Notes: generated by a model not told the origin, from the letters alone. Shown: positions 2,830 through 62,094, numbered from the stretch's first letter. The stretch: 64,000 nucleotides of DNA from Candidatus Micrarchaeota archaeon (GCA_018812715.1 JAHJCT010000011.1:114614-178613), one strand, 5' to 3'. Program-made: numbers and translations.

Positions 2830-3246
2830 TCAACCTGAATAACCTATATTTTTGCAAAGATCATAAACTGTTATATGTTTTGATATTCCGTCAAAAGATG
2901 CATTTTCAAGCTTTAAATTTTGCTGAAGGTTTTTTGGATTTCCTGTATATACCCTTAATCTCTTTAATGCCTTTTCTCCTCTCGTGCTCTTTTTTGGGAG
3001 CATGCCTCTTATCATTCTTTTAACAAGTAAATGGGGCATTCTTGACCACTTCGGAGAGTACTCTGGCGTTGCCTTATTTTTCAAACGTCTTTTTATCAAA
3101 AGTCTTTCACTGATCTGTTTAGGATTTCCGATCAGCACAATTTTTTCTGCATTAATCAGACTCACTTCTTCCCCAAGAATCAGCTTCTTTGCTATCTGGC
3201 TTGACATTCTTCCAAAAATCAGATCAGTTCCATCTACAACTATCAT
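2830..3246 (-). CDS. rpl13: 50S ribosomal protein L13 (uL13)
   Basis: MIVVDGTDLIFGRMSSQIAKKLILGEEVSLINAEKIVLIGNPK... matches the uL13 N-terminus. Track ORF extends to 3255; internal Met chosen as start. Confidence 0.85.
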   Translation of the reverse strand: MIVVDGTDLIFGRMSSQIAKKLILGEEVSLINAEKIVLIGNPKQISERLLIKRRLKNKATPEYSPKWSRMPHLLVKRMIRGMLPKKSTRGEKALKRLRVYTGNPKNLQQNLKLENASFDGISKHITVYDLCKNIGYSG

Positions 3247-16854: not shown

Positions 16855-16947
16855 TCTACCAACTCTCTAAACTGAGCATTGGAAAGCTCAAACTTCTGAA
16901 AAATGGACTTTCACTTGAAATGCTGTTTCAAGATTTTCCATTAAAAA

Positions 16948-17050
16948 TGGACTCGGGGGGAATCGCACCCCCGGCCTCTCCCATGCCAAGGGAGCGCTCT
17001 ACTGCTGCCCAATTTCTTTTTTATCTAAGAATTTTCTGAGCCACGAGCCC
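16948..17050 (-). tRNA. tRNA-Ala (anticodon GGC) with ~30-nt insertion (probable non-canonical intron) in the D-arm
   Basis: Minus-strand read: GGGCTCG-TG-GCTCAG[AAAATTCTTAGATAAAAAAGAAATTGGGCAGC]AGTAGAGC-G-CTCCC-TTGGCAT-GGGAG-AGGCC-GGGGG-TGCGATT-CCCCC-CGAGTCC-A. Acceptor stem pairs with the G3:U70 Ala identity pair, anticodon loop is TT-GGC-AT, discriminator A. Exact intron boundaries uncertain. T-loop has unusual G at 55. Confidence 0.65.
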
Positions 17051-32916: not shown

Positions 32917-34014
32917 TCACGTATTTTGTTCGAATATCATCAGATCCATCCCGTGATCTTTGTCAATTCTCACTTTTTGTGTTTTTATAAATTTGAATAA
33001 CCCCTCTATCCTGTATTTTATCTGATCTAATGAAAGCCGTGGTCTTTCTATGATTCTTCGTATCTTTTCAGACATCTCAGGTCCAACTATGAATGGGTTT
33101 TCTTCTGCAACAATAAGTTTTGCACCTTTTTTCATTCTAAAACCTACTGCTAGCAACGGTGCTATAAAAGACGTGTAAGCAGTAGCATTGAACATCAATA
33201 CGGTATTGAATTCTACATCCTTTGGAAGGTCATCACTATGTTCTATATCTCCGCAAATGAATTTTATTTCTGAACCATTATTCACAACTAATGGCGTTTC
33301 AAGTACTGAAGCCATCTTTCTTGCAAACCTAATCATTTCAGCTGAAGAATCAATACCTACGTATGTGAATGGTTCTTTTATCATTCTATGTAATTGATGT
33401 AAATTTCTTCCCGATCCACAACATAAATCTAGTATTGGTTCTCGAATATGTTCTCTTACCTTCATTAGTGCCATATGCTGAGCTCTGTAATGCCCACTTT
33501 CTAACATGTAATCATCAAATTCAAACGCAATTTCATTCCATTGATTTGTAAATGAAGCAAAAGAACAATTGTAATGATGAAGTGGCATGTACAAATCTAA
33601 AGATTTGTCCCATCCAAACGGCACTTCTTTTATGTTTAGTCCATCTTCCTTGAGTTTGTAGGTCAATATACTCATCATTCTTCTTGCCAGTTCTGGTTCT
33701 GCTGAATTTTCACTTAAATGAGCAAAGGCAGCAATAACTATCTCCTCTACACCAAGCATTTGACGTGATCTTAGAATTGCTTCTTTTACATCATCCAAAA
33801 GATCAAGTCCATTATCTCCTTTTTCAACACAAACAAAGACAAGCAGGGCATTTTCTGCTTTAGTCTCTTTATTTGAATCATCTAGAATTGGCAGGACTTC
33901 TCCAAGTCTCTCTCTTAGTTTATCTTCATTCCGTTTTCTTCCGCCGCCATTTTTTCCGCTCTTTGCACCTGCTTTAATGCGAAGATTCTGTGCATGCATA
34001 AACAACATTTTCAT
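32917..34014 (-). CDS. fusion protein: ThrRS-editing/DTD2-like N-terminal domain + class I SAM methyltransferase
   Basis: N-terminal about 150 aa (MKMLFMHAQN...ALLVFVCVEKGD...IVIAAFAHLSENSAEPELA...VPFGWDKS) resembles the archaeal ThrRS N-terminal editing domain/DTD2. C-terminal half has MTase motif I ILDLCCGSGR preceded by the YDxxM..GH block shared with two paralogs. Confidence 0.5.
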   Translation of the reverse strand: MKMLFMHAQNLRIKAGAKSGKNGGGRKRNEDKLRERLGEVLPILDDSNKETKAENALLVFVCVEKGDNGLDLLDDVKEAILRSRQMLGVEEIVIAAFAHLSENSAEPELARRMMSILTYKLKEDGLNIKEVPFGWDKSLDLYMPLHHYNCSFASFTNQWNEIAFEFDDYMLESGHYRAQHMALMKVREHIREPILDLCCGSGRNLHQLHRMIKEPFTYVGIDSSAEMIRFARKMASVLETPLVVNNGSEIKFICGDIEHSDDLPKDVEFNTVLMFNATAYTSFIAPLLAVGFRMKKGAKLIVAEENPFIVGPEMSEKIRRIIERPRLSLDQIKYRIEGLFKFIKTQKVRIDKDHGMDLMIFEQNT

Positions 34015-38235: not shown

Positions 38236-39372
38236 ATGCGAGATCGAAAAACCCAGTATAGGCGGAAACTTGAGAAACCACGCTCTATAGAGAAAAAAGG
38301 CCTTCCTACGAAGAAAGTGGCTGTTGTAGTTGGTAAAGCCTATACCATTGATCAACTTCAAGATCTCATTGCTTCTCTATCGAGTGGCTCTTCGGATAGA
38401 GAAATAATTGCAGTAACTAACTTTATTGAAAATCAAAGTTCAATAGCAGAAACTGCTGTCAATACGCCTGAAATATCCGGAACAGAGATAGTAGAATTGG
38501 TTATTGCTGCCGTATTAAAAAATGAAAAAGAACTATTGTCTAAGTTTGAAAAAGAAAATAACGTTCCAGCACTTACTTTTATAGCAAAATCATCGTCAAT
38601 GCCACCCCCAGTACAAAAAAGAGCTGCAGAAGTGCTTCAACGTGCCGAACCTCAAAAAATTGCAAAAGAAGAAATAACTTTTGTCCTGCCATATACTCCA
38701 AAGGAAGTCCAAATACTTATAAAAAATTTAGAAAGCAAAGTAGAGGAAATCAAAATATCTGCCGCTATTCAGTTTATTCACGATTATCCGCGTGTAACTC
38801 CAGCAGTTTTAGCTATGCCGCTGCTAACAGTAACCAGTGTAACCACCAAAGCTGTCGAAGTGATAAAAGTCAATACTGATCGTGTTCTGGATGCTATGGT
38901 ACAAAAAAAGATGGTGCCAGCCCTAATCTTTCTATCTTCTTTGAGTCAAGTTCCATTGCCAATACAAAAACGTGCAAGAGAAGCTGCAGAGAAACTACTT
39001 GTTTCTCCAGTTGAAAAGCCCAGAGAATACGCTTCCTCCAAACACTATGCACCTATGGAATTACAGGCTTTACTTGATGGTCTCGGCAGTGTCGAACGTG
39101 TAAGGGCAGTTAGAAATGCCATTGAATTTTTGAAAAATTATGATATTATAATACAAGCAATCTCAAAAGCGCCAATGCTTACTGTAACGGAAGTAACAAG
39201 CAATGCAGTTAAGGTTATAGAGACTAATTTAGGAAGCATTCTGAAAGAACTAAAAAGGACAAATGATACCGCCACAATTGAGTTTTTAGCACATTCAAGC
39301 AAATTCTCTTCGAAAACTAGAAAGAAAGCAGCTCAAGTACTGAAGCTTATGTTTGAACCATCTGAAGAATAA
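38236..39372 (+). CDS. hypothetical protein with three internal ~100-aa repeats
   Basis: Repeated blocks ...AVTNFIENQSSIAETAVNTPEISGTEIVELVIAAVLKN.../...ISAAIQFIHDYPRVTPAVLAMPLLTVTSVTTKAVEVIKVN.../...AVRNAIEFLKNYDIIIQAISKAPMLTVTEVTSNAVKVIETN... Confidence 0.4.
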   Translation: MRDRKTQYRRKLEKPRSIEKKGLPTKKVAVVVGKAYTIDQLQDLIASLSSGSSDREIIAVTNFIENQSSIAETAVNTPEISGTEIVELVIAAVLKNEKELLSKFEKENNVPALTFIAKSSSMPPPVQKRAAEVLQRAEPQKIAKEEITFVLPYTPKEVQILIKNLESKVEEIKISAAIQFIHDYPRVTPAVLAMPLLTVTSVTTKAVEVIKVNTDRVLDAMVQKKMVPALIFLSSLSQVPLPIQKRAREAAEKLLVSPVEKPREYASSKHYAPMELQALLDGLGSVERVRAVRNAIEFLKNYDIIIQAISKAPMLTVTEVTSNAVKVIETNLGSILKELKRTNDTATIEFLAHSSKFSSKTRKKAAQVLKLMFEPSEE

Positions 39373-39409
39373 ACTAATAAAAACATAATCACTTATTAGC
39401 TTTCACTAA

Positions 39410-39646
39410 GCCCTTGTAGCTCAGCGGTAGAGCGCGTCCTTGGTATCCCAACTTTTAGGAAACAACAAAGAACTTTGTTCTTTGTGCCCCATGAAAGCAT
39501 TGTTTTTATGTGGGAGTTGGATCAAAACTGGCCAAAGAGGACGAGGTCGCGAGTTCAAAAAACTTTCCCGATGAAATCTCATATTAAAGTGTTATCAAAC
39601 TTCATGAGTTGAAACTGGTCAAGTTTTGGAAATCTCGCCGGGGGCT
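39410..39646 (+). tRNA. tRNA-Thr (anticodon GGU) with two introns (92 nt at 37/38 and ~73 nt in the T-loop at ~59/60)
   Basis: Exons: GCCCTTG-TA-GCTC-AGCGGTA-GAGC-G-CGTCC-TTGGTA[39446..39537]A-GGACG-AGGTC-GCGAG-TTCAAA[39560..39632]T-CTCGC-CGGGGGC-T. All four stems pair (acceptor with two G-U). Mature length 72 nt. First intron contains a perfect hairpin CAAAGAAC-TTT-GTTCTTTG. Confidence 0.75.
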
Positions 39647-39676
39647 ATTTATATTTCTTATGATCTTATTTTGCCT

Positions 39677-41930: not shown

Positions 41931-44900
41931 ATGCGCGCATATCTTTTATTATTATTGATGATTTTAGCAGGTTTATCTTTTTCTATCGACGTTTCAAGCT
42001 GTGAGAATATCACAGCACCTGGTGTTTATGAACTAACTACCAATCTTGTAGGTGCACCTAATAATGCCTCTGAAGTATCGAGTATTGACTGGGCATGTAT
42101 AAAGATAGCATCTTCAGACGTAGTCTTTGACTGTATGGGATATACAATAACAAACGACGGAACTCTAGCTGCTGCAGGTATCGTTGTTAATGGTTCTAGT
42201 GGAATTAACTATCCCAATGTAACAGTAAGAAACTGCCCTTCGATTACACAATATTACTATGGTATTTACATTTATCGAACTAATGAAACTACCGTCACAA
42301 ATGTAACATTGTATAACAACACATATTCATTTGCTTCCCTTATATCTGATTATCTTAATCTCACAAATAACACAGCTTACGATCAAACTGCTGGTTTTGA
42401 GATTATTGGTTGTGCTGGATGCAGTCTTATTGATAATGTTGTTTACGATATGTCAGATGTTGGTATTGCTAGCAGTGGCTGTTTTTATTGTAATTTTATA
42501 AATAATAGTATGTATGACGGCTCAGATTATGGATTTTATATTGAGCAAACTGGTGATACTAATTTTATCAATAACACAGTTTTTGATATCTCTAATGATG
42601 CATTTCATATCAGCGGTGCTAGTGATTGCAACTTCATAAACAATACAGTCTATAACAGCCTCGATGGTATGGACCTTTATATGACCAGCAATATGACTAT
42701 CATCAATAACTCATTTTATAACAACAATGAAGATGCTATTGAAATTTATGAAGGTGGCGATAACAATTTATCAAATAACGAACTCTATAACAATGAACGG
42801 GGCCTCAGCATATACAATGCTTCTGCAACACGTGTAATCGGAGATCATTATTATAACAACAGCATAGATATCTTCGTTAATGGAACAGGAATAACAGTCG
42901 ATCTTTCTGGTGTTATCTTTGATAATGATGCTGGAACACTGGCAGATTACACAAACATCTCTTTAACTGATACAGTTGCATCCATCTACACTATAGATCA
43001 CGCAGTTCAACCCGCAGCACTACCGCCCAATATGGCGTCATTTGAAAATAAATTTGTAAACATTACAAATCTAACAAGCGGGGTTTCAATAGATACTATT
43101 ATCTGGCACTGGACAGAGGCTGAAACTGCTGGTTATACTGAAGCTAACTTTGAATTATGGAAATATAATGTTTCAGGTTGGGCCGATACTGGTGCTACCC
43201 CCAATACCGCAACTAACACATTCACTTTAACAAATCTAAATCCGGCAAGCACTTATGCAATATTGCAAACAAGTGTTTGTCCAGTTATAAGTTCAAGCGG
43301 AACATATGCCCAACTAGGCGATCTTGTTGGCGCCCCCAATTCTGCAAGTCCAGTTTTCGGTTCTGTATGTGTAAAGATAACTGCATCTAATGTTGTCTAT
43401 GATTGTAATGGTTATAGTATCACTAATGACGGAACAGGTTCTGCTATGGGTATAATGATTGGCAGAACATCAGATCTTAATCCAGAAATAACAAATGTTA
43501 CCGTTAGAAACTGCCCAAGCGTTTCGCAATATACCTATGGTATTTATACTCGCGGAGCTAATGATAGTTTCATAATTAATTCTACAGTTCACAACAATGC
43601 CGGCTATGGTACTTTCTTTATGCTCAGTAATGATATCACTGTTATCAATAGCACCGCACATAGCAATGGACTTGATGGATTTTATACCTCTACAAGTTCC
43701 ACATTTACTAATTTCTCCAATAACACAGCTTATAACAACACTCGTAGTGGTTTTGTTCTTTTCCCGGGAGCTAATAGTACAGTTTTGGATAACACTGCAT
43801 ATAATAACACGGAATATGGTTTCTACTGGAGAATGAGTGGTGGTAGTAACGCCATCAATAACACAGCACACAACAACGGGCTGAGTGGCTTCTATCTTTA
43901 TGATTCAGATAACAATACTCTTTTGAATAATACAGCGTACAATAATTCAAATGAAGGTATTCTTCTCGTTGATTCCAATAACAATGAATTCAATAATAAT
44001 GAAGCATATGAAAATTATGTTGGTATCTCAACTTATCATTCAGACTACAATACTCTGCAAAATAACTCGGTTCATAACAATGTAATGACTGCCATTGTTG
44101 TAAATAGTTCTTCTTATAACAATTTGACTAACAATACTATCTATAATCATCGCGGAGCGATGGGGCCAGCATTTGGAATTTATGTTGAAGCATCATCATA
44201 TCAAAATCAAATTACAGATAATAACCTCACTAATAACACGGTTTGTATAGTCCTGGGGGCAACCAGAACTGCATTTAATGGCGGTAACAATTGGATAGTA
44301 AATAACACTATGACTGATGCATATATGGGTGTTTTCCTTTACCTAGCTGATAATACATCTGTAATAGAAAATCATATCAGCAATGTTCCGGAGACGAGTG
44401 CAATTATCGTTTTAGGTTCTGATATTTATGGCATGTTTGGCGGCGGATATCTAGGCGCTTACAACAATACTTTCATTGGCAATGTAATAGAAAACAGTAC
44501 TGGTTTCATTTTCTACATGGCAAATAACAATGTAATTCAGTCAAATATTATAGCAAATGCCACTGGCTACTTTAATTGGTCTGACGCAGGGATTTTAGAA
44601 AATTATACTGGTTTTTACTTCTATGAATCCAATTATTCAAATCTGTCTGACAATTTAGTATACAATCTTTCTGGTTACGCACTCCACATAATCGATTCAG
44701 AATCTGTTAATGCCTCTGATACACATGTTTATAACAATGATAGAGGTGCTCTGTTTGTTTCTGCTTCAGTAGCAACAAATCTTTACTTATCAAACTTCAC
44801 AATAGATAATCCATCAGGCAACTTCCAAAATTATACAAGCATCTCACTTACTGATGCTGTTGATGGTGACAGTAAATATACTATTAACTGGTCATTCAAT

Positions 44901-47900
44901 TCAACTGCTTTACCTGCCAATTACTTTTCATTTGAAGGGAAATATGTAGATATAAGTCAATACAAAGGAGGAGTACCTAGTATAATAGATTCAATTACAT
45001 GGACTTGGCTAAATTCAGAGTTGTCAGGATATGATGAATCCAGATTTGAATTATGGCAATATAATGGAACTTGGACCAATATGGGTGCAACATTGGATAC
45101 TGGAGCAAACGCATTGACAGTAACAAACCTGAATCCAGAAAGTACCTATAGTATACTACAAAGTAATCTGTCTACATGTATGCTGATCAATTCTTCAGGT
45201 TATTATCAACTTAATACTAATCTTCAGGGTGCTCCAATAAATGCTGCCCCTCTAACCGGAACTGCTTGTATAAAAATAAATAGTTCAGATGTAGTCCTTG
45301 ATTGTAATGGATTTACTATTACAAATAATGGAACTGCTGGAACTACAAGAGGTATTCTAGCGGTAGGTCCAATCTCAAACATAACAATTTTCAATTGTCC
45401 AGGAATTGCAAATTATACCAATGGTATTGAGGTCGTTGAATCTAATGATACCTTAGTTCTAAATAATACGGTCTATGAAATTGGCACCGATGGTTTAAGT
45501 GTAACAAACTGTACCAACTCTGAATTTATCAACAACACAGCTTACAATATTACAGATGATGCCTTTGACTTTTACAACTGTACCAATATTACAGTGATAA
45601 ATAATACTGGCTATTTGATATTTAGTGGTGACATCTTTGAAAATAGTCTTTGCAACAATTGTGATTTCATAGATAACAGTGCTCTTGGAGGATTCGCCGA
45701 TGCCTTTGACTTTAATTATTGTAATAATACAAACCTCATAAACAATACCTTAAGTTTTGCTTTAGATAATCTTGTGGAAGCAACCTATTCTATAAATTGG
45801 ACCGTAATTAACAATACACTTCACGATGCTGGAAACGATGCCTTTTTCTTTGGCGATGCTGTCAATATTGTTTTCCTAAATAATACTGTTCATGATATAC
45901 AAAATGAATTCTTTGATATTGAACTTTGTAGTAATTGTAACCTCACCAACAACACAGGTTACATGTCATATGCTGGGGGCGGACTTAATCTTATTGATTC
46001 CAATATCATTACAGTAACAAATAACACTTTCTATGATGTTACTCTTGATGCTTCATATGCAGAAAATTGTACTAATTGTAATTTCATAAATAACACCGCT
46101 TATAACTCCACTGATGCAGATATATTTGATTTCGACAGATGTACTAACCTTACAGTAATGAATAATAGTGGTTTTCTAACACTTAACAGCAACATCTTTG
46201 AAACTAGCCGCTGTAATAATTGTGATTTCATAAATAATCTTGCTATGGGGGCAATAATTAATGCTAGTAGCGCCTTTGACTTTGCTGCTTGTAATAATAC
46301 CAACATCATAAACAATAATGTAACCTGGAGTATTAATGATCTTGTGCAAGTAAGTTATTGTATAAACTGCAGTGTAATCAATAACACACTTTACTATGCT
46401 GGGGGAGATGGTTTTGCTCTTGGTAAATCTATCAATTTTACTCTTTTAAATAATACAGTCAATGGTGTTATAGATGACGGAGCTGATATAAAAGAGTTAA
46501 ATGATAGTATCATTAGAAATAATTTATTATATAATATATCTGATAACGGTATTGAATTTTCTGAATGTGATAATTGCACTCTAATCAACAATACTATTTA
46601 TAATGTAAGTATTAATGGCTATTACTTAGATGAGATGACTAATTGTGTTCTTATCAATAATACAGCCTATGATATTGGAGACGATGGATATGATGGTGGA
46701 GATTCAAGCAATACTAATTTCACAAATAATTTAGCTTATGATACTGGAGGTGACGGTTTCCAATTTGAAGACTCTACTAACATCATTTTCCTTAACAACA
46801 CAGCATACGACAACCCTGAGTTTGGGTTCAGCCTAAACAACTCGCCGAGCAACACTTTTGTCAATAACACAGCGTATAATAATGGATATGCTGGGTTTGC
46901 TGCATTCCTTGGCTCTAATGGCAATAATTTCACCAGAAACCTGGCTTACAACAATACTGGTTTTGCACTCCTTGAAGTTTATAATACCAATCTGGATTCC
47001 AATATTGCGAGAGATAGTGAGGGTTATGGGGTCCAGGTAATTGGTCTTATGCTAGGCATACCATTTGTTGATGATCTAGATGACGTTGGTTTCCTTTTCT
47101 ATGAATCCGATAGTTCTATTGTATTCAACAATAGTGCTTACAATTTCACAGGAAACATGAGCGGAGATGAAGAATCATATGGTTTTGTTGTTTACTTAAG
47201 CGACAATAACAACTTCACCAACAATCTTGCACATACTACTAATGATTCCGGCTTCTTATTGCTAAATTCATCTTACAATAATCTTACCAATAATACTGTA
47301 TATGACAACCGGGAAGCTGGAATAGCTCTTGAAGAGAATTGTACTTGGAATATTCTAACTAACAACACTGCCCACCATAATGGCCTTATCGGTATTAATC
47401 TACAAGATGGTCCTTTCGCAAACGGAATATATGGAACAAATGCTTATAGTAATGGCTGGTGTTCCTTCCAAATTTTTGATGCTGATACGAATGGCTTCAT
47501 TAACAATACAGTGACTAATGACACTGGTTTCATTGTCATATTTTCCAATGATACTCAAATCCTTTCAAATACTGTAGCCAACAGCAGTGGAAGTGGAGTA
47601 AGCTCTTATATACCAACAATTGATGATAGTGGTGTTGTTTTGATATACTCTAACTACACTAATATATCTGATAATGTGGTTTACAATTTAACCAACAACA
47701 CATCTCATGCTTTCTATCTTGATCAAAGCAATAACAATCTTCTCATAAATAATACAGCTTATATTAATGGAGAAACAGGTTTCTATGTGCACAACTCCCA
47801 TTACAATACCTTAGTGAATAATACTGATAACAACAACCATGAAGGTTTTATTATTGACAGTGGCTCGTCCTTTAATATTCTCTATAACAACACGGCCATG

Positions 47901-48446
47901 TTTGACAATGGTTATCAAGTACTTGGTGCTGCATTCAACAATTCACTGATTGATAATACGGCTTATTATATAGAAGACAATGGTTTCAGTGTAAAAAATG
48001 GTGGCTTCAATACTACATTGATAAACAATACTGCATTATTCAGTGATGAAGCAGGCTATCTCATTATGATGTCTGATAATAACACGCTTTTCAATAACAC
48101 TGCATATAACAACTATGCCAATGGTTTCGAAATATTTATGGCTGCGGATAATCACCTCATCAATAACACTGCATACGAAAATAATGAATCAGGTTATTCA
48201 ATTGGCATGAATCTAGTTCCAAACTACTTCTTCAACAACACCGCATACGACAACAACTTCACTGGTTTTATGATCATGCAGAATAATAATAGTGATTTCC
48301 AAAACAATACAGTTCATGACAATGGTCTCATGGGCTTCTTAATAGTCTTGGCTGGCCACAACAATTTCACTAACAATACAGCTTATGACGGCAATGTAAG
48401 TGGTTTCTGGCTGGGTATGGATTCACGTTACAATGTTTTCACATAA
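41931..48446 (+). CDS. giant secreted right-handed beta-helix (NosD/PbH1-like) repeat surface protein, N-terminal 2171-codon segment
   Basis: Signal peptide. Dozens of ~22-aa NNTAYNN..GF.L... parallel beta-helix repeats organised into three super-modules, each opening with C...(S/A)PG.Y.L..NL.GAP.NA(S/A). Ends at a single in-frame TAA, see findings. Confidence 0.7.
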   Translation: MRAYLLLLLMILAGLSFSIDVSSCENITAPGVYELTTNLVGAPNNASEVSSIDWACIKIASSDVVFDCMGYTITNDGTLAAAGIVVNGSSGINYPNVTVRNCPSITQYYYGIYIYRTNETTVTNVTLYNNTYSFASLISDYLNLTNNTAYDQTAGFEIIGCAGCSLIDNVVYDMSDVGIASSGCFYCNFINNSMYDGSDYGFYIEQTGDTNFINNTVFDISNDAFHISGASDCNFINNTVYNSLDGMDLYMTSNMTIINNSFYNNNEDAIEIYEGGDNNLSNNELYNNERGLSIYNASATRVIGDHYYNNSIDIFVNGTGITVDLSGVIFDNDAGTLADYTNISLTDTVASIYTIDHAVQPAALPPNMASFENKFVNITNLTSGVSIDTIIWHWTEAETAGYTEANFELWKYNVSGWADTGATPNTATNTFTLTNLNPASTYAILQTSVCPVISSSGTYAQLGDLVGAPNSASPVFGSVCVKITASNVVYDCNGYSITNDGTGSAMGIMIGRTSDLNPEITNVTVRNCPSVSQYTYGIYTRGANDSFIINSTVHNNAGYGTFFMLSNDITVINSTAHSNGLDGFYTSTSSTFTNFSNNTAYNNTRSGFVLFPGANSTVLDNTAYNNTEYGFYWRMSGGSNAINNTAHNNGLSGFYLYDSDNNTLLNNTAYNNSNEGILLVDSNNNEFNNNEAYENYVGISTYHSDYNTLQNNSVHNNVMTAIVVNSSSYNNLTNNTIYNHRGAMGPAFGIYVEASSYQNQITDNNLTNNTVCIVLGATRTAFNGGNNWIVNNTMTDAYMGVFLYLADNTSVIENHISNVPETSAIIVLGSDIYGMFGGGYLGAYNNTFIGNVIENSTGFIFYMANNNVIQSNIIANATGYFNWSDAGILENYTGFYFYESNYSNLSDNLVYNLSGYALHIIDSESVNASDTHVYNNDRGALFVSASVATNLYLSNFTIDNPSGNFQNYTSISLTDAVDGDSKYTINWSFNSTALPANYFSFEGKYVDISQYKGGVPSIIDSITWTWLNSELSGYDESRFELWQYNGTWTNMGATLDTGANALTVTNLNPESTYSILQSNLSTCMLINSSGYYQLNTNLQGAPINAAPLTGTACIKINSSDVVLDCNGFTITNNGTAGTTRGILAVGPISNITIFNCPGIANYTNGIEVVESNDTLVLNNTVYEIGTDGLSVTNCTNSEFINNTAYNITDDAFDFYNCTNITVINNTGYLIFSGDIFENSLCNNCDFIDNSALGGFADAFDFNYCNNTNLINNTLSFALDNLVEATYSINWTVINNTLHDAGNDAFFFGDAVNIVFLNNTVHDIQNEFFDIELCSNCNLTNNTGYMSYAGGGLNLIDSNIITVTNNTFYDVTLDASYAENCTNCNFINNTAYNSTDADIFDFDRCTNLTVMNNSGFLTLNSNIFETSRCNNCDFINNLAMGAIINASSAFDFAACNNTNIINNNVTWSINDLVQVSYCINCSVINNTLYYAGGDGFALGKSINFTLLNNTVNGVIDDGADIKELNDSIIRNNLLYNISDNGIEFSECDNCTLINNTIYNVSINGYYLDEMTNCVLINNTAYDIGDDGYDGGDSSNTNFTNNLAYDTGGDGFQFEDSTNIIFLNNTAYDNPEFGFSLNNSPSNTFVNNTAYNNGYAGFAAFLGSNGNNFTRNLAYNNTGFALLEVYNTNLDSNIARDSEGYGVQVIGLMLGIPFVDDLDDVGFLFYESDSSIVFNNSAYNFTGNMSGDEESYGFVVYLSDNNNFTNNLAHTTNDSGFLLLNSSYNNLTNNTVYDNREAGIALEENCTWNILTNNTAHHNGLIGINLQDGPFANGIYGTNAYSNGWCSFQIFDADTNGFINNTVTNDTGFIVIFSNDTQILSNTVANSSGSGVSSYIPTIDDSGVVLIYSNYTNISDNVVYNLTNNTSHAFYLDQSNNNLLINNTAYINGETGFYVHNSHYNTLVNNTDNNNHEGFIIDSGSSFNILYNNTAMFDNGYQVLGAAFNNSLIDNTAYYIEDNGFSVKNGGFNTTLINNTALFSDEAGYLIMMSDNNTLFNNTAYNNYANGFEIFMAADNHLINNTAYENNESGYSIGMNLVPNYFFNNTAYDNNFTGFMIMQNNNSDFQNNTVHDNGLMGFLIVLAGHNNFTNNTAYDGNVSGFWLGMDSRYNVFT

Positions 48447-50816: not shown

Positions 50817-51374
50817 TCAAGAAATTTGTTCTTTTAGGATAAAATAAAGATCAAAATAATCACGTGGCTGGTTTCTTGTTATGGCAGCCCTGAGTTTTTC
50901 TGCTATGAGTTCATTGAAATTAAGAACATTTATTTCAAAATCCAAATTATAGAAATTATGAACTTTTTTCCTATCTATTTTGATGTGAATTGATGCTTTT
51001 CTATTTGCATCTAGAATAATATAATTGTTATTTGAAAAATAACTCTGATAAAAGATTTTAATTCTTACAAAATTCCTGCTTTCATTTTCATATTCTATCC
51101 TTCTGAAATGTTTTTTGTCATTTTTAACAATTTCTTCTATTTTTGCCTTAATCTGGGTTATTGGAATAGTTGCTGTAAAATCTGCATCTTCAGAAAGACG
51201 CATGTGGTCTAAGAAAATTTTATTCAGGGCAGTTCCACCTTTGAAATATATCCCTTCAAAATCTTTCAGATGATAGAGCAAGATTGTTAGGAAATAATCT
51301 TTTTCCAGATATATAAGATTATATCCAGTTTCAGCTGCAATATTCCGAAGTTTTGCTTCATTTATCCGATCCAT
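50817..51374 (-). CDS. AbiEii-family nucleotidyltransferase toxin (type IV toxin-antitoxin, DUF1814)
   Basis: IYFKGGTALNKIF is the GGTAL signature of the AbiEii/DUF1814 nucleotidyltransferase. 185 aa, downstream of and overlapping the putative antitoxin. Confidence 0.6.
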   Translation of the reverse strand: MDRINEAKLRNIAAETGYNLIYLEKDYFLTILLYHLKDFEGIYFKGGTALNKIFLDHMRLSEDADFTATIPITQIKAKIEEIVKNDKKHFRRIEYENESRNFVRIKIFYQSYFSNNNYIILDANRKASIHIKIDRKKVHNFYNLDFEINVLNFNELIAEKLRAAITRNQPRDYFDLYFILKEQIS

Positions 51375-51907
51375 TTTTTACTTTCCCTCTTTGATGCGAT
51401 TAAAAAATCATGGTCCTTTATTTTCCTTTTAACTGTTTTTCCTAATTTTCTCACTCGTCTAAACTTGAACACAGAGCCAAGTATTTTCATTGTCCCTTGT
51501 TTTTTTGTAGAAAATACATCTATAACTGTGGGCAACTGATCTATCAACCCCCAATAATTTGCAGCTGCTTTGCCACCTATGTAGTAATCCTTTCCATTGA
51601 ACATTTCATCTGCTATGATGAATGGGTGTTCTGCCCAGCCTTTGTAGGCCTTTATCGGAATCAAGTAATATTTTTCCTTGTTTATTCTCTCAATTCTTCT
51701 TTTTTTCCTTAGCCTGTGTACGTAAACATTCAATTCATTGTCAGATGTAAAAAACTTTCTGATGTCCTTCTTTGAGAAAAATCTTTTTTCCTCTAGTTCA
51801 AGGTATGAAACTACTTCAATTTCTTTGTTTGACAAACCTTTGATACGATGCTTCGTATCAAATTTTGGCGCAGTTTTTTGCAATCCTTTGATTTTCTTCT
51901 TAGTCAT
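51362..51907 (-). CDS. AbiEi-like antitoxin/transcriptional regulator
   Basis: ...YYIGGKAAANYWGLIDQLPTVIDVFS... matches the AbiEi C-terminal domain pattern (Y.sl.sAl.y.GL.dq.p..i.v). Basic N-terminus. Gene order antitoxin then toxin with 13-nt overlap. Confidence 0.5.
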   Translation of the reverse strand: MTKKKIKGLQKTAPKFDTKHRIKGLSNKEIEVVSYLELEEKRFFSKKDIRKFFTSDNELNVYVHRLRKKRRIERINKEKYYLIPIKAYKGWAEHPFIIADEMFNGKDYYIGGKAAANYWGLIDQLPTVIDVFSTKKQGTMKILGSVFKFRRVRKLGKTVKRKIKDHDFLIASKRESKKWIG

Positions 51908-52152: not shown

Positions 52153-52306
52153 TGGCGCCCCAACGGCGATTTGAACGCCGAATTCAACCTGTCAGCTTGG
52201 CCTTTCGGTGAGAAACACCCAAAAAAACGAGAATGTGTTTTAGGGCGCCGTTTCCCAAAAGGCGCAACCGCAGGGTTGCGTCCTATCCAGATTAGACTAT
52301 TGGGGC
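52153..52306 (-). tRNA. tRNA-Arg (anticodon GCG) with 77-nt intron at the canonical 37/38 position, CCA encoded
   Basis: Minus-strand exons: GCCCCAA-TA-GTCT-AATCTGGATA-GGAC-G-CAACC-CTGCGG[intron]A-GGTTG-AATT-CGGCG-TTCAAAT-CGCCG-TTGGGGC-G-CCA. All stems Watson-Crick or G-U. T-loop TTCAAAT. Confidence 0.75.
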
Positions 52307-55110: not shown

Positions 55111-55312
55111 GCAGGGGTGGCAGAGCGGCCAAATGCGCCAGCTTGAGGAACTTTTTTGGAAAAAAGTTCCACCAAAAACTGATTGTTTATGGTGGTTATC
55201 CAAATAAGTTGCGAAATGTTTAGGAAATAGCAGCCTGTTTTGGTTTCGCTTTTCCTAAAAGCGGAAGGCTGGTGGGTTAGTCCCTACGAGTGTTCGAATC
55301 ACTTCCCCTGCA
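55111..55312 (+). tRNA. tRNA-Leu (anticodon GAG), class II with long variable arm and ~118-nt anticodon-loop intron
   Basis: GCAGGGG-TG-GCA-GAGCGGCCAAA-TGC-G-CCAGC-TTGAGG[intron ~55149..55266](G/A)-GCTGG-TGGGTTAGTCCCTAC-GAGTG-TTCGAAT-CACTT-CCCCTGC-A. Acceptor fully paired. Intron begins with a perfect hairpin AACTTTTTT-GG-AAAAAAGTT. Starts 9 nt after the rpoD stop. Confidence 0.7.
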
Positions 55313-56532: not shown

Positions 56533-59500
56533 ATGCGATTTACATATTTTGTCTTGATTTTGGCTTTAATTAGCTTGGGATTTGCCATCTCACCTTTGGC
56601 CATTGATGTTCTAGAACCTGCTGGTGATATAGAAATAAACCAAAATAGAATATACAATGTAACTGTTAATGTATCATGTAATGTTGGAGATTGTGGAGAT
56701 GTTAATGTCTCTTTGGATAATTTTCCAACTTCATGTAAAGCAATCTTAGATCTAGGTCAAAGTATTGGCGATGGAGAGTATACTATATACCCAGCCAATC
56801 ATCCTTCTGGAATAGATGTTTATTGTGATATGACCACTGATGGCGGGGGTTGGACCTTGGTATTTGCAGGTATGGGAAGCACCTCAACTTATGCTTCTAC
56901 CTGGTCAGGCTGGTTTTCTGAAGGTTCAACCACAGAAATAACTGATAAAAGCACCGAAGGAAAAAGTCCAGCATATGATAGTGTTACAGTGAGTACTTTA
57001 ATGCTGGAGTCAACTTATGGAACAGACGGAATAATTATCGCAGATTTAGATCAAACTTATTCCAGTCTTCTGGATCTGGTTGGACCTGATCCAGGGTATA
57101 ATGATGGAAGCACTTCCTGGGATAATGGATTAAAAGGGCCATTTACTGCCAATTATCCTCATACTGGTGATCATTTTGTTAATGATTGGATTAGGATATG
57201 GGTTGGAGATGGAGATTATGATGAGCAGGATAGAGTTGTTTTTGCTACCCAACTTGGTGAAGGGGACTGGTCTGGTCATGATAATCCCGGTGCAATTGGC
57301 GGCGAATACCAAACAGCAAGAGATGGAAGTGATTGGTACTACGTATGGGTGAGAGAAGAAGGCACATATGAATCGTATTCTGATGTCATTACGATAAATA
57401 ATGGCGAATCCGAAATCGTAATCTTTTCAGTAAATGCAACTGTTATCGGAAATTACACTTATTATGCTTATGCAGAAGAGGTTTCTAACCCATCTGTCAA
57501 CACAACTAGTAGCACCTGGAATGTAACTGTATATCCCCCTATACAGGTTATTTTTTCATCTCCAGGAAAATATGTTTCTGGCAATGATGTTACCGTAAAT
57601 CTCACCACAAGGTATTTTGTGGAAGGTCTAGACAGTATCTGGTGGAATAATGGAACAGCAAACCAGACATATTCAGGAGAAACTACTGACTATTATCCAG
57701 ATGGGTTTTATACATTTACTGCATATGCCAATGACAGTGCTGGTTATCTGGCCTCAACAATACTAAATTTCAACGTCAATATATGTGGTTTGGAACTTGA
57801 TTCTGATTATACACTTGAATATGATCTTGATTGCAGTGAATATTCTGAAGCTGCAGTTATTATTACTGAAGAAAATGTTACTCTTGATTGTGATGGCCAT
57901 TCAATAATCGGTCCTGGTTATGATACAGGAGTTTATTCCGAGTATGATAATACTATTATACAAAATTGCATTATAAGTAATTTTAATGAAGGTATACAGT
58001 TCTATGATTCTTCTAATGGCTTTATAATCAACAATACTTTTGACTCAAATTATTATGGTCTTTGGCTTGGGGAAAACTCAGATAATAATATAGTTACTTA
58101 CAATACTTTCACTTCAAATGATTATGGATTTTATTTAGAATTTGCCGATAACAACCAAATAGGGCATAACACAGTTGATATGTCGTATTCTAATTTTGGT
58201 GATTCTTCCTGTCCCTTTGTTTATGCATGGAATGGCGAAGAGTATGACTTCATAACTGATTTTTCCAGCAGTGGCAGATTAGCAGCTTCGAGTAAGGGAA
58301 CCCCAAGGGTCTACTATGACTATGTGAAACTTTCAAATGAACAATTAAAACCAGAATCTGGTTTTTACCAAATTCAATTAACAGAAGAATACGATGAAAT
58401 CTCATATGTCGATGAGCTCACATTAATTACAATAGACCATCCATCTGATTATGATGTTTACACTGGATTTACTATGGATGATAAAAGCGATATTTATACA
58501 GTTAGCAAAACTTTATTGCCAATTGAATCATGTGTGGATGAATCAGGGCAGGATTGTACGTCTGAAGTTTCTACCAAGGATGGCATATATACTGAAAAAG
58601 CAGATGGTGTAAATAAAAAAACATTTGAGCTTGATCTTGGTGATCTTTCAGAAGATGTTAAATTAGTTATAACTTATGCAAAAGCTCTCGACCTTGATCT
58701 GGATGACGAGACAAGATCAATTCAGATAAAAAATTCAGAAGGTGTTTGGACTGATTTATATACTCATTCCGAGTTAATCTCTTCTCCAAATGCCCCAAAT
58801 ACCTATGTTCTTGATCTTACTGGGTTATTGGTCTATGATAATTCAGTAAAATTAATACTTCCAGAAGGATTAATTGACTATCTTGCAGTTGATACTTCGC
58901 CACAACAAGAAGTAGTTGTAAACGCATATTCTCCTGATTCTGCAAATCTACACTACCATGGTTATTCTGAAGATATTAGCAACGATGTAGTTGATTATGA
59001 TTATTATTCTCTTGCATCACTTCGAAATAACGAACCCACTGGTTACTTCACTAAATATGGAGATGTTAACGAACTCCTTACTTCAACTGATGATATGTAC
59101 GTTATCATGCACGATGGTGATGAGATTTCAGTTGAATTCCAATACAATGCTCCAGAAGAGGGGATGACAAGAGATTTCCTTGTTTACAGCTGGTATTACT
59201 ACAAACCTGCAAAGAAATTTTTAGATGATTATACTGTTGATCCATTACCATTTGTTGGCATGAGCACTTATCCATATCCAGAAGGAGAAACTTACCCACA
59301 AGATGAAGAACATCAAGCTTATCTTTCGGAATGGAATACCCGATATTACGAAAGACCAATGAGAATGGGCGGCTCATTACCGTATTCCTTCAATAATACA
59401 GTATTTGAAAATACTATTATAGGAAGTAGTTCTGGTTATGGTTTATATCTATACGAGGAAGATTCAACATTGTTGCTAAATAACAATATCTCAGATGTAG

Positions 59501-62094
59501 AGATTGGTATTTATCTAGAGGATTCAAGTTATACTTTAATTAGTGGAAACAATATATTCGATGTCGAAACAGGTATGTACCTTGGTGATTCTGATTATAA
59601 TGAAATCTATGAAAATGAAATAGAAGCTTTTGAGGGCAGAGGAATTAATGTTAGGTACTCTGATTACAATGAAATCTTTGATAATATACTCTTTGTAGAC
59701 AGTACCGATAATTGTGATTATGGCGGACCTGGCTGTGGAGGAATTTATGTCGTTGGCTGTTCTTATGTGAACATAATCACTGACAATGACATTACTTCCC
59801 TTTATGGTCATGGTATTGCTATCGGTGGTTGTGGCGAAGACAACGACTTCATTGGCAATACGCTAACTATAACTAACGATGAAAGCAACTACTACGCATT
59901 CTATGCCTTTGAAGGTGGTGATGGCTGTTCTTACTACAATACTTTCTTACACAACAGAATTTTCAGCGATTACTGGATCTATGATGATTGTGATGGAAAT
60001 GACTATAGCGATGATTATTCAGGAAATATCTACTATTTTGCAGATGCAACTCCAAGCTGGGAAGTGTACGATGATCTTTATGATACTACAGACCCAGAAG
60101 ATGGTTGGGCAGATGAAGGAGATTTTGTACCATTTAGTTATGGTACTTTAGAAGATGAAGATCTGTGGTATGATTATGGTGAAGATTGGCATCCAGCACT
60201 AACAGATGACCCATCCATACATTCAGTTGATGTTGAATTAGTTTCTCCTGAAGATGAAGCACAAGCGTTAAGTCCGATTATTTTTACTTACATACCATCA
60301 GTTGGCTGGGAAGGCCAAACTATCGAAAATTGCGATATAACTGTTCAAACTGTTGAAGGAGGAGAAGTAACTGAAATAGATCCAGGTGAACAAGATGGTT
60401 TAGTTGCTTTATGGCACTTTAACGATGATTATCTTGATTCATCAGGAAATGGCCATGATGGAACTCCTGAAGGTGATACTTATCTCACTCCTGATTCGCG
60501 ACTTGGCGATGGTGCGGTATTTCTAGATGGTGATCTTGATTATGTATCAGTGCCTGATTCAGGTGATTTTGATGATGGCCCTGATCTTACCTTTGCTGCA
60601 TGGGTACATTTTGATGGAGAATCTACAAATTGGAATAGAATAGTTTCAAAACGTCTAGATTGTTGTGATGGAGAACCGGGTTGGGAGATCACTCTCGATG
60701 GTGGTGATGGCACAGATATTTATGTATCTGATAATGGCTGGGGAGGATTTATCAACGGCCAGTGTGTTGACAGCTGGACTGATGGTAATTGGCACCATGT
60801 TGCTGTTACATACGATGAAGATACTGCATCAGTATATTGCGATGGTGAGTTCAAATTTTCAGGAGCAGTTAATTCAATAAGTCCAAATGACCAAGATTTA
60901 CTTCTCGGCAAAATTGAATCAGAAGATAGTACTAGTTGGGTTGGTGCTATGGATGAAGTTGCCATCTGGAATCGTGCTCTCTCAGAAGATGAAGTGGAAG
61001 AACTTTATACTAGCTATACTTACTATACTGACTCTTCCTCTTCAATAGATGAAGGTGAAGAAAATACATTCACAATGGAATTACCTGATGGTGAATATTA
61101 TTGGAGTGTTGAATGTACTGATAATCTGGATATAACTGGAGAATCGGAAACATGGCTTTTAACAGTTGGTGAAGAAGAACCTCCAGAAGAAGATGGTAAT
61201 CCATCTCCTTCAAAACCACAACTTTCAATTGATCTAGATAGTTCCTGTGAAGACAACACAATAACCGTTACAAGCAATGGCGATGAAGTTGCCGGCGTTT
61301 CAGCAACTGTCCTTAATTACGATACTATGACCAACATTGCAAGTGGAAACACAGATGCAAATGGTGAACTGAGCTTCAGTGATTGCGGCAAAACTGTAAA
61401 AGTAAGTGCTTCAAAATCAAATTACAAGTCTGCAACTGGCATATACACACTTGATGACTGCTGTGAAGAAGAACAAGTTGGTTGTATAGATGATTCAGAT
61501 TGTCTTTCAACAAAAGAATGTGTTAATGGTGCCTGCGTTGCTGTTGAATGTGAATGTGGCACAGTTCAAAACCACCAATGTGTTCCATATGACTGTTGCT
61601 TAGATTCAGACTGCAATGAAGGTGAAGTTTGTACTGAACATGCGTGCGTATCGGTTCCTGTTGAGCCAGAATGCACTTCTAATGATGACTGTGCTTCAGG
61701 AATGGAATGTAGTAATGGAATTTGCATTGAAGTCGAACCACCTGAGGATCTTGAAGATTTAGCGACCCAAACAATAAATACTGCTCAAGACGCAATAGAT
61801 ACTGCCAAATCAGAAGGCAAAGATACAAGTGAGGCAGAAGCAAAGCTTGCAGCAGCATGGGCCGCATATGAAGCAGGCAATTTTGAAGAAGCAAAAAATC
61901 TTGCAGAAGAAGCAAAGCAATTGGCACTCAATGCAGCTGCACAACCAGCAAATCAAACAGGAACAGAAATTGAAGTTACTGAAACTCAACAAGACAATAA
62001 TGTCGTCTTTGTAACTGTTTTCTTACTATTGGTATTAGCAGCATTATGCATTTACTGGGTTGTCTCACGAAAACCTGCTAAGAAGAAAAAATAA
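56533..62094 (+). CDS. giant mosaic surface protein: signal peptide, fibrinogen-related domain, beta-helix repeats, LamG/ConA-like lectin domain, Cys-rich modules, TM anchor and KKKK tail
   Basis: 1853 aa. SGIDVYCDMTTDGGGWTLVFAGMG is the fibrinogen C-terminal-domain hallmark. NosD-like beta-helix repeats (NCIISNFNEGIQFYDSSNGFIINNTFDSNYYGLWLGENSDNN...). LamG-like block (LDGDLDYVSVPDSG...LTFAAWVHFDG...WHHVAVTYDEDTASVYCDGEF). C-terminal Cys-rich module homologous to the 48447..50114 tail. TM VVFVTVFLLLVLAALCIYWVV followed by SRKPAKKKK. Confidence 0.65.
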   Translation: MRFTYFVLILALISLGFAISPLAIDVLEPAGDIEINQNRIYNVTVNVSCNVGDCGDVNVSLDNFPTSCKAILDLGQSIGDGEYTIYPANHPSGIDVYCDMTTDGGGWTLVFAGMGSTSTYASTWSGWFSEGSTTEITDKSTEGKSPAYDSVTVSTLMLESTYGTDGIIIADLDQTYSSLLDLVGPDPGYNDGSTSWDNGLKGPFTANYPHTGDHFVNDWIRIWVGDGDYDEQDRVVFATQLGEGDWSGHDNPGAIGGEYQTARDGSDWYYVWVREEGTYESYSDVITINNGESEIVIFSVNATVIGNYTYYAYAEEVSNPSVNTTSSTWNVTVYPPIQVIFSSPGKYVSGNDVTVNLTTRYFVEGLDSIWWNNGTANQTYSGETTDYYPDGFYTFTAYANDSAGYLASTILNFNVNICGLELDSDYTLEYDLDCSEYSEAAVIITEENVTLDCDGHSIIGPGYDTGVYSEYDNTIIQNCIISNFNEGIQFYDSSNGFIINNTFDSNYYGLWLGENSDNNIVTYNTFTSNDYGFYLEFADNNQIGHNTVDMSYSNFGDSSCPFVYAWNGEEYDFITDFSSSGRLAASSKGTPRVYYDYVKLSNEQLKPESGFYQIQLTEEYDEISYVDELTLITIDHPSDYDVYTGFTMDDKSDIYTVSKTLLPIESCVDESGQDCTSEVSTKDGIYTEKADGVNKKTFELDLGDLSEDVKLVITYAKALDLDLDDETRSIQIKNSEGVWTDLYTHSELISSPNAPNTYVLDLTGLLVYDNSVKLILPEGLIDYLAVDTSPQQEVVVNAYSPDSANLHYHGYSEDISNDVVDYDYYSLASLRNNEPTGYFTKYGDVNELLTSTDDMYVIMHDGDEISVEFQYNAPEEGMTRDFLVYSWYYYKPAKKFLDDYTVDPLPFVGMSTYPYPEGETYPQDEEHQAYLSEWNTRYYERPMRMGGSLPYSFNNTVFENTIIGSSSGYGLYLYEEDSTLLLNNNISDVEIGIYLEDSSYTLISGNNIFDVETGMYLGDSDYNEIYENEIEAFEGRGINVRYSDYNEIFDNILFVDSTDNCDYGGPGCGGIYVVGCSYVNIITDNDITSLYGHGIAIGGCGEDNDFIGNTLTITNDESNYYAFYAFEGGDGCSYYNTFLHNRIFSDYWIYDDCDGNDYSDDYSGNIYYFADATPSWEVYDDLYDTTDPEDGWADEGDFVPFSYGTLEDEDLWYDYGEDWHPALTDDPSIHSVDVELVSPEDEAQALSPIIFTYIPSVGWEGQTIENCDITVQTVEGGEVTEIDPGEQDGLVALWHFNDDYLDSSGNGHDGTPEGDTYLTPDSRLGDGAVFLDGDLDYVSVPDSGDFDDGPDLTFAAWVHFDGESTNWNRIVSKRLDCCDGEPGWEITLDGGDGTDIYVSDNGWGGFINGQCVDSWTDGNWHHVAVTYDEDTASVYCDGEFKFSGAVNSISPNDQDLLLGKIESEDSTSWVGAMDEVAIWNRALSEDEVEELYTSYTYYTDSSSSIDEGEENTFTMELPDGEYYWSVECTDNLDITGESETWLLTVGEEEPPEEDGNPSPSKPQLSIDLDSSCEDNTITVTSNGDEVAGVSATVLNYDTMTNIASGNTDANGELSFSDCGKTVKVSASKSNYKSATGIYTLDDCCEEEQVGCIDDSDCLSTKECVNGACVAVECECGTVQNHQCVPYDCCLDSDCNEGEVCTEHACVSVPVEPECTSNDDCASGMECSNGICIEVEPPEDLEDLATQTINTAQDAIDTAKSEGKDTSEAEAKLAAAWAAYEAGNFEEAKNLAEEAKQLALNAAAQPANQTGTEIEVTETQQDNNVVFVTVFLLLVLAALCIYWVVSRKPAKKKK

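Follow-up and report, generated by a model that had tools for sequence, protein, structure and literature searches.

The tRNA-Thr(GGU) gene and its flanks

The window (the whole 64-kb stretch of DNA that was analysed) carries a tRNA-Thr(GGU) gene on the plus strand at 39410-39646. The gene consists of three colinear exons of 36, 22 and 13 nt and a discriminator U, and reads GCCCTTGTAGCTCAGCGGTAGAGCGCGTCCTTGGTA, a 92-nt insert, AGGACGAGGTCGCGAGTTCAAA, a 73-nt insert, TCTCGCCGGGGGC and a final T; CCA is not encoded. The gene, the elements within it and its immediate flanks are as follows:

39374-39384 (+): A/T-rich box CTAATAAAAAC, centred ~31 nt upstream of tRNA position 1
39410-39445 (+): exon 1, 36 nt, tRNA positions 1-37, ending with A37 and kept in the orthologues; acceptor 5′ strand, D arm, anticodon stem 5′ strand and the loop bases UU-GGU-A
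39446-39537 (+): intron 1, 92 nt, at the canonical position 37/38
39465-39514 (+): two-hairpin module within intron 1 (hairpin 1, 39465-39485; hairpin 2, 39487-39514), present in the minimum free energy (MFE) and centroid folds
39538-39559 (+): exon 2, 22 nt, tRNA positions 38-59; anticodon stem 3′ strand, variable loop AGGUC, T stem 5′ strand GCGAG and the T-loop bases UUCAAA
39560-39632 (+): intron 2, 73 nt, in the T-loop at 59/60
39633-39645 (+): exon 3, 13 nt, tRNA positions 60-72; U60, T stem 3′ strand CUCGC and acceptor 3′ strand CGGGGGC
39646 (+): discriminator U73 (T in DNA), the last base of the gene
39647-39665 (+): T-rich tract ATTTATATTTCTTATGATC, directly 3′ of the gene

The spliced exons amount to 71 nt, or 72 nt with the discriminator, and ARAGORN called the spliced sequence as tRNA-Thr(GGT) with all four stems. 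The acceptor stem has 7 bp, including two G-U pairs, the D stem has 4 bp, and the anticodon and T stems have 5 bp each, enclosing the loops UUGGUAA and UUCAAAT, respectively. The exons fold as a perfect cloverleaf and contain no disabling substitution. When intron 2 alone was removed, ARAGORN -i called a tRNA-Thr with a 92-nt intron. A tRNA-Thr(GGU) with two inserts is far beyond what would be expected by chance, given the near-identical exons of the syntenic orthologues, the compensatory changes in their stems and the exon-intron contrast in GC content described below. The sequence-only reading from which this analysis started had given the coordinates, the insert lengths of 92 and 73 nt and their positions, one between nt 37 and 38 and one in the T-loop, and these proved exact to the base; the canonical 72-nt cloverleaf with the T-loop TTCAAAT that it had described after removal of both inserts was also recovered.

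Neither default ARAGORN nor Rfam, at gathering and E-value thresholds, reported a tRNA in the unspliced DNA of the whole window, and the warning that such a gene is an annotation trap was therefore well founded. The unspliced 237-nt RNA had an MFE of -73.5 kcal/mol (z = -3.2 relative to shuffles), and all four tRNA stems were retained in the predicted fold. The GC content was 0.62 in the exons vs 0.39 in intron 1 and 0.32 in intron 2, with a genome value of roughly 36%. The three exons lie on one strand, in order and within 237 nt, which is not the arrangement of a split or permuted tRNA gene. The cloverleaf that characterizes tRNA genes with archaeal bulge-helix-bulge (BHB) introns was found both in the ARAGORN call on the spliced sequence and in an RNAalifold consensus of 11 orthologues.

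The box CTAATAAAAAC, which follows closely on the stop codon of the gene upstream, is a candidate archaeal TATA element that may serve as the promoter. Boxes resembling [AC]TAATAAAA were found at -36 to -27 upstream of the syntenic tRNA-Thr genes in L133, L136, L137, L138, L139, L140, L141, L142 and L116 (L numbers designate the other loci compared). The tract ATTTATATTTCTTATGATC is a candidate archaeal termination signal; a T-rich tract follows most of the syntenic orthologues, although it is not evident in L024 or in the non-syntenic L127.

Host and gene neighbourhood

The ORF directly upstream of the tRNA gene (p378, 38236-39372) was 100% identical to the NCBI hypothetical protein KKB44_01240 [Candidatus Micrarchaeota archaeon], and the surrounding genes are archaeal, among them those for mevalonate kinase (MVK), endonuclease III (EndoIII), ribosomal proteins, Kae1 and Hjc. 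The order EndoIII-MVK-DUF2666-p378-tRNA-Thr is common to L116 (Bin_091), L024, L057 and contigs found by way of p378 homologues, and the synteny MVK-DUF2666-p378-tRNA-Thr was present in at least 11 other contigs. The locus itself also occurs in the assembly of a public run, Logan SRR2540949. The host is placed in the Micrarchaeota by the p378 identity, by this synteny and by an MVK that is 74% identical to that of Micrarchaeota Bin_091 (L116). This agrees with the claim of the sequence-only reading that such genes are confined to a few archaeal lineages, as 59/60 introns, multi-intron tRNAs and a relaxed-specificity epsilon2 splicing endonuclease (EndA) have been published for the Micrarchaeota (PMC3239211, PMC4033280).

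Several other genes in the window were recorded. A 365-aa ORF (32917-34014, minus strand) contains an archaea-specific ThrRS editing domain (PF08915, E = 4e-21) and a class I SAM methyltransferase domain, a fusion that is unusual for a free-standing ThrRS editing domain. Two very large ORFs are located on the plus strand at 41931-48446 (2171 aa) and 56533-62094 (1853 aa); the former has a signal peptide, is rich in N-x-T/S and in 'NNTAYNN' beta-helix-like repeats and is probably a giant surface protein of a kind common in DPANN. An AbiEii-family nucleotidyltransferase toxin gene (PF08843, E = 2e-24) is located at 50817-51374 on the minus strand with an unassigned 181-aa ORF upstream (51362-51907), and the two may form a type IV toxin-antitoxin pair, adjoining a tRNA-Arg gene.

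Splice motifs at the two junctions

The canonical archaeal BHB motif has a 4-bp central helix (H) flanked by a 3-nt bulge on either side, and the RNA is cut after the second base of each bulge. In applying the motif here, the last two bases of the exon and of the intron were set aside, and the 4 nt immediately preceding them on each strand were expected to pair with one another. The 37/38 introns provide an internal check on this rule: A37 is preserved only by cutting after the second bulge base.

At intron 1, the helix H is formed by 39440-39443 (UUGG, nt 32-35) with 39532-39535 (CCAA) in four Watson-Crick pairs, and the bulges are UA^U (39444-39446) and AG^A (39536-39538), where ^ marks the cut. 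The outer flank h is the anticodon stem, with 5/5 pairs, and the other flank h′ is CC/GG only, with 2/6 pairs, so this junction is closer to the relaxed hBH type. At intron 2, H is formed by 39554-39557 (UUCA, nt 54-57) with 39627-39630 (UGGA) through the pairs U-A, U.G, C-G and A-U, and the bulges are AA^A (39558-39560) and AA^U (39631-39633). Here h is the T stem (39549-39553 with 39634-39638, 5/5), and h′ is formed by 39561-39566 (AACUUU) with 39621-39626 (AAGUUU), with 5/6 pairs and one C-U mismatch.

When 3′-bulge lengths of 0-7 were scanned, H reached 4/4 at length 3 only, for both introns. A 4/4 helix occurred in shuffled introns at frequencies of 0.065 (intron 1) and 0.014 (intron 2), and the combination of H 4/4 with h′ 5/6 occurred in shuffled intron 2 at a frequency of 0.0005. 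The cuts predicted independently on the two strands give loops of exactly 7 nt and restore A37. Thus, two 3-nt bulges around a 4-bp helix, with cuts after the second bulge base, are present at both introns, although the motif is not the MFE structure at either one: a forced strict BHB lies above the MFE by 5.2 kcal/mol at intron 1 and by 6.7 kcal/mol at intron 2. A BHB-like fold at both junctions had been named beforehand as the test of the splicing claim, and it was found in the canonical register, though not as the MFE.

The MFE structure at the T-loop is a slipped near-BHB, in which the helix AAAACUU/AAGUUUU leaves a 5′ bulge of 2 nt. In addition, the T-loop junction lies in a run of A residues, such that cuts at 57/58, 58/59 and 59/60 yield an identical mature sequence. 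The position 59/60 was chosen among these three equivalent cuts because it is the one picked by the BHB register.

Orthologous tRNA-Thr(GGU) genes

Further loci were sought with a degenerate exon-1 pattern over genome contigs, which returned mostly bacterial matches (position 38 not A) and at least 10 useful archaeal loci. A metagenome scan for exon 1, 75-105 nt and exon 2 returned mostly tandem bacterial tRNA-Thr genes and three useful archaeal loci. The exons of the syntenic orthologues are near-identical, and their intron sets differ, with one to three introns in the complete genes:

Window, L116, L133 and L140: introns at 37/38 and in the T-loop (the L116 contig ends inside the T-loop insert, and its 3′ junction is unseen)
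L137, L138 and L141: T-loop intron only
L136 and L139: introns in the D-loop and at 37/38
L142: introns in the D-loop, at 37/38 and in the T-loop
L024 and L057: 37/38 intron only

A T-loop intron is also present in two non-syntenic genes, those of L127 (a metagenome contig) and L013 (Aenigmatarchaeota). The three-intron gene of L142 (GCA_018813505.1, JAHJBM010000002.1) lies ~30-280 nt downstream of the p378 homologue, at ~2857-3108, with inserts of ~49 nt in the D-loop, 41 nt at 37/38 and 93 nt in the T-loop. The D-loop insert of L136 and L139, which accompanies their 37/38 intron, is ~31 nt long.

RNAalifold folded the 11 spliced orthologues as one cloverleaf with compensatory changes in 9 of the 23 pairs, among them pairs of the T stem and the anticodon stem whose two halves lie on either side of an intron. 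The exons were kept, with compensatory stem changes, across a protein divergence of ~50-65% identity. The intron strand of H also varied among the orthologues, with CCAA, CUGA, UCAA or CUGG opposite UUGG and UGGA or UGAA opposite UUCA; these variants are pairing-compatible only.

At 59/60, the T-loop introns of L140 and L127 show the strict hBHBh′ motif in textbook form. In the T-loop introns of L133, L137, L138, L141 and L142, in contrast, H forms only with a 3′ bulge of 5 nt (CAAAT, TATAT, CATAT or CAATT), and a by-eye comparison of the 3′ junctions of L140 and L133 indicated an apparent 2-nt indel at this bulge. If the cut were measured from H, these five genes would be left with a T-loop of 9 nt, and therefore the enzyme must either measure from the T stem or tolerate the larger bulge; this hint of unusual enzyme tolerance is to be taken as a lead only.

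These data bear on whether the T-loop insert might be cut at 57/58 or 58/59 instead, or by way of a relaxed bulge-helix-loop with a 2-nt 5′ bulge, which we consider unlikely. The A run (UUCAAA^AAAC ... GGAAA^U) allows three cut pairs with one mature sequence, the MFE prefers the slipped helix with its 2-nt bulge, and the five orthologues with a 5-nt 3′ bulge imply an enzyme that must tolerate non-standard geometry. However, the 37/38 introns validate the rule that cuts follow the second bulge base, since any other cut there destroys A37, and when the rule is extended to the T-loop, both strands point to 59/60 in the window, L140, L127 and L013; the ARMAN-2 introns were likewise published at 59/60 (PMC3239211). 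An alternative cut in the A run, or a relaxed motif, leaves the nature of the feature unchanged. The enzymatically spliced T-loop intron at 59/60 is the reading retained below.

In a rough neighbour-joining tree of DUF2666, a single protein with no support values, the T-loop intron was present throughout the ingroup; L136/L139 and the outgroups L024 and L057 lacked it. This distribution would be explained by one gain of the T-loop intron followed by losses, together with several precise losses of the 37/38 intron. Assembly breaks were also noted near or in the tRNA-Thr gene: the contigs of L134 and L135 stop 30-60 nt beyond the p378 stop codon, and that of L116 stops within the T-loop intron. 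Three independent assemblies broken in or immediately ahead of this gene suggest strain-level intron heterogeneity or repeats that break assembly.

Other interrupted tRNA genes in the window

With intron-aware settings, three further interrupted tRNA genes were detected, so that all four tRNA genes detected in the 64 kb carry an intron.

A tRNA-Ala(GGC) gene at 16945-17050 (minus strand) has the G3:U70 identity pair and a D-loop insert of roughly 27-32 nt, and reads GGGCTCGTGGCTCAG[AAAATTC...GGGCAGC]AGTAGAGC... It was visible only as a weak match to the Rfam tmRNA model (E = 4e-4), and ARAGORN -i wrongly took the region for a tRNA-Cys containing an intron of 927 nt. Candidate splice sites for the D-loop insert are provided by one BHB-like option, with H TCAG/TTGG and h′ 5/6; a brute-force scan for splice sites of this insert gave no clean answer.

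An interrupted type-II tRNA gene with a long variable arm is located at 55111-55312 (plus strand), directly after the S13-S4-S11-RpoD genes. ARAGORN -i placed the intron at 34/35 and identified the gene as tRNA-Ser(GGA); with the canonical 37/38 site, splicing would instead yield a tRNA-Leu(GAG) with G37, A73 and a 118-nt intron, which looks more plausible than the Ser assignment. A tRNA-Arg(GCG) gene at 52153-52306 (minus strand) has a 77-nt intron at or near 37/38 and encodes CCA. A scan for strict BHB motifs found none in register in the Arg gene and gave no clean answer for the Ser/Leu-type gene. The Arg intron holds CCTTTTGGGAAACGGC, which is like the start of the L116 Thr 37/38 intron, with a score reached by 26 of 5000 shuffles.

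When two intron motifs were searched across the window for hidden tRNA genes, the counts were no higher than in shuffles, and meaningful matches were found only in already known introns.

Because the other three detected tRNA genes are interrupted too, interruption is the norm in the window. This is one of several observations that make it very improbable that the locus is a dead tRNA-Thr(GGU) gene, destroyed by two insertions after which another tRNA-Thr took over decoding. Such a relic might be suspected from the failure of default tRNA finders to see a gene in the unspliced DNA and from BHB conformers that are not the lowest-energy folds, but the exons would then hardly be expected to form a perfect cloverleaf free of disabling substitutions or to be conserved, with compensatory stem changes, in syntenic orthologues whose proteins are ~50-65% identical. 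Furthermore, both inserts are in BHB register, and the promoter-like and terminator-like flanks are conserved.

Content and relatedness of the introns

Over its whole length, window intron 2 is homologous to the T-loop intron of L140 (0 of 5000 shuffles reached the score), and window intron 1 is homologous to intron 1 of L116 (0 of 5000). The two-hairpin module of intron 1, in which a conserved UUGUGCCCCA joins both hairpins, is also present in intron 1 of L116, where base changes appear by eye to keep both stems; the related introns of L136 and L142, 41 nt long, lack it. The nested two-hairpin insert of the L116 intron is flanked by a GGGAA repeat.

Neither window intron contained a C-box-like site (RUGAUGA, at most 1 mismatch) or CUGA, and no snoRNA family in Rfam matched above noise inside them. 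An intron-encoded C/D-box guide sRNA of the tRNA-Trp intron type, which would need C and D boxes, was therefore ruled out.

Group I and group II introns were also ruled out by size (92 and 73 nt vs >200 nt) and by the lack of an Rfam match at either threshold. The wider proposal that the inserts are self-splicing introns, a mobile element or an integration scar, and are not spliced by an endonuclease, can be given almost no weight: group I introns do occur in archaea, DPANN included (PMC6125680), and 3′ tRNA fragments are repeated downstream of the gene in L125 and L127 like traces of integrated elements, but the inserts are far below ribozyme size, match no Rfam intron family at any threshold, contain no ORF, have no repeated tRNA fragment beside the window gene and are both in BHB register.

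The repeated fragments in question are copies of the tRNA-Thr 3′ end located ~30-100 nt downstream, about 20-45 nt long in L125 (from ~locus position 8669, reverse strand) and ~13 nt long in L127. They would look like att-site duplications of integrated elements.

Similarity was also found between introns of different tRNA genes and positions. The first 33 nt of the Ser/Leu-type tRNA intron (55149-55181) are 88% identical to the Thr 37/38 introns of L136/L142 (0 of 5000 shuffles), and its last ~44 nt (55183-55226) resemble the L139 Thr intron (4 of 5000 shuffles), so this intron looks composite. In addition, a 14-mer is common to the T-loop intron of L140 and the 37/38 intron of L142 (0 of 5000 shuffles). 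Intron modules shared between tRNA genes and positions suggest intron mobility, and these similarities are to be taken as leads only.

Discussion

The locus is very probably a functional tRNA-Thr(GGU) gene of Candidatus Micrarchaeota (DPANN) with two enzymatically spliced BHB-type introns. The direct basis of this interpretation is the exon/intron anatomy, the BHB register, the orthology and the conservation of the exons; transcription, cleavage, ligation and the type of enzyme are what we infer.

A model for the processing of this gene would be as follows. A 237-nt precursor would be transcribed from the A/T-box promoter ~31 nt upstream, and the acceptor, D, anticodon and T stems would be able to form within it. 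At each boundary, the exon loop would pair with the 3′ end of the intron to give a 4-bp helix, which is UUGG/CCAA in the anticodon loop and UUCA/UGGA in the T-loop, with a 3-nt bulge at either end. EndA, the splicing endonuclease of archaea, would cut after the second base of each bulge, releasing introns of 92 and 73 nt, and an RtcB-type ligase would join the three exons into a 72-nt tRNA with anticodon and T loops of 7 nt. CCA would be added after ligation, because it is not encoded in the gene.

A broad-specificity EndA, as in ARMAN-2, is expected from the imperfection of both motifs and the non-canonical position of the T-loop site. In the window, 64 kb of a 244-kb contig, no PF01974 domain was found among 50 ORFs in a Pfam scan, and tblastn gave no match to pieces of the M. 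jannaschii or ARMAN-2 EndA. A homologue search with the ARMAN-2 catalytic unit, the query for which was read from the PDB 4fz2 alignment, returned only proteins of 95-218 aa, mostly single-unit-sized and none from this MAG.

The closest known system is that of ARMAN-2 (Candidatus Micrarchaeum acidiphilum), in which 56% of the tRNA genes are disrupted (Fujishima et al. 2011, PMC3239211). Its pre-tRNA-Cys(GCA) has an hBH intron at 59/60, its pre-tRNA-Pro(GGG) has introns at 53/54 and 59/60, and its epsilon2 EndA cleaves strict and relaxed motifs (PMC3239211); ARMAN-1 and ARMAN-2 are listed among the multiple-intron tRNA lineages in reviews (PMC4033280). The window gene shares with these the phylum, the T-loop site at 59/60, more than one intron in a gene and junctions of BHB or relaxed-BHB type, and interrupted tRNA genes are numerous in both (56% there vs four of the four detected in this window). 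It has the ARMAN-2-type combination of a 59/60 intron and multiple introns in one gene. It differs in being a Thr-GGU gene with the sites 37/38 and 59/60, and in coming from a neutral-habitat MAG, whereas ARMAN-2 belongs to an acid-mine lineage. Moreover, the ARMAN-2 cases are explained by the epsilon2 endonuclease, a three-unit enzyme with an ARMAN-specific loop, which did not turn up in the EndA searches described above. Loop insertions in EndA have been linked with increased tRNA disruption in DPANN (PMC5829648).

Multi-intron tRNAs and intron transposition have also been described in Thermoproteales and other Crenarchaeota (Sugahara 2008; Fujishima 2010; reviewed in PMC4033280 and PMC4090602). 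The likeness lies in up to three BHB introns at non-canonical sites, in relaxed hBH/HBh′ motifs and in similar introns in different tRNA genes, here the 33-nt module of the Leu/Ser-type intron and the Thr introns of relatives. The Crenarchaeota differ in belonging to TACK and not DPANN, and in having an (alpha-beta)2 enzyme with a Crenarchaea-specific loop. Intron 1 resembles the canonical strict hBHBh′ intron at 37/38 (Haloferax tRNA-Trp, Methanocaldococcus) in its site, in an H of 4 bp between nt 32-35 and the 3′ end of the intron, in its 3-nt bulges and in the use of the anticodon stem as h. In contrast, its h′ is only 2 bp, it is long (92 nt), and it contains a conserved two-hairpin insert. 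The tRNA-Trp intron encodes a C/D-box guide RNA, unlike window intron 1.

The window gene is thus another case of a known phenomenon, because 59/60 introns, multi-intron tRNAs and the epsilon2 enzyme were described for ARMAN-2 in 2011. The sequence-only reading had also proposed the gene as a lineage marker, and only part of this proposal stands: genes of this kind are known in Micrarchaeota, but the marker is a weak one because intron content differs even among close syntenic orthologues. The gene matters mainly because standard tRNA finders miss such genes. The tRNA sets of new DPANN genomes are incompletely predicted (PMC5829648). Default tools found no tRNA in a window with at least four interrupted genes, and therefore tRNA inventories and completeness of DPANN MAGs are under-counted without intron-aware searches.

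For the biology of the group, the advance is a modest one: T-loop introns at 59/60 and multiple introns, as known from ARMAN-2, are now also seen in tRNA-Thr and in a Micrarchaeota lineage that is not acidophilic. The syntenic orthologues provide material on the gain, loss and movement of BHB introns and on the tolerance of the endonuclease for 5-nt bulges. It is a tentative proposal, which we hold to be somewhat short of probable, that this series of tRNA-Thr(GGU) genes in a Micrarchaeota clade represents natural snapshots of such gain, loss and movement. Intron transposition has been described in Thermoproteales (PMC4033280); if an active transposition or a retro-homing-like process operates here, the mechanism of archaeal tRNA-intron gain would become directly testable outside that order.
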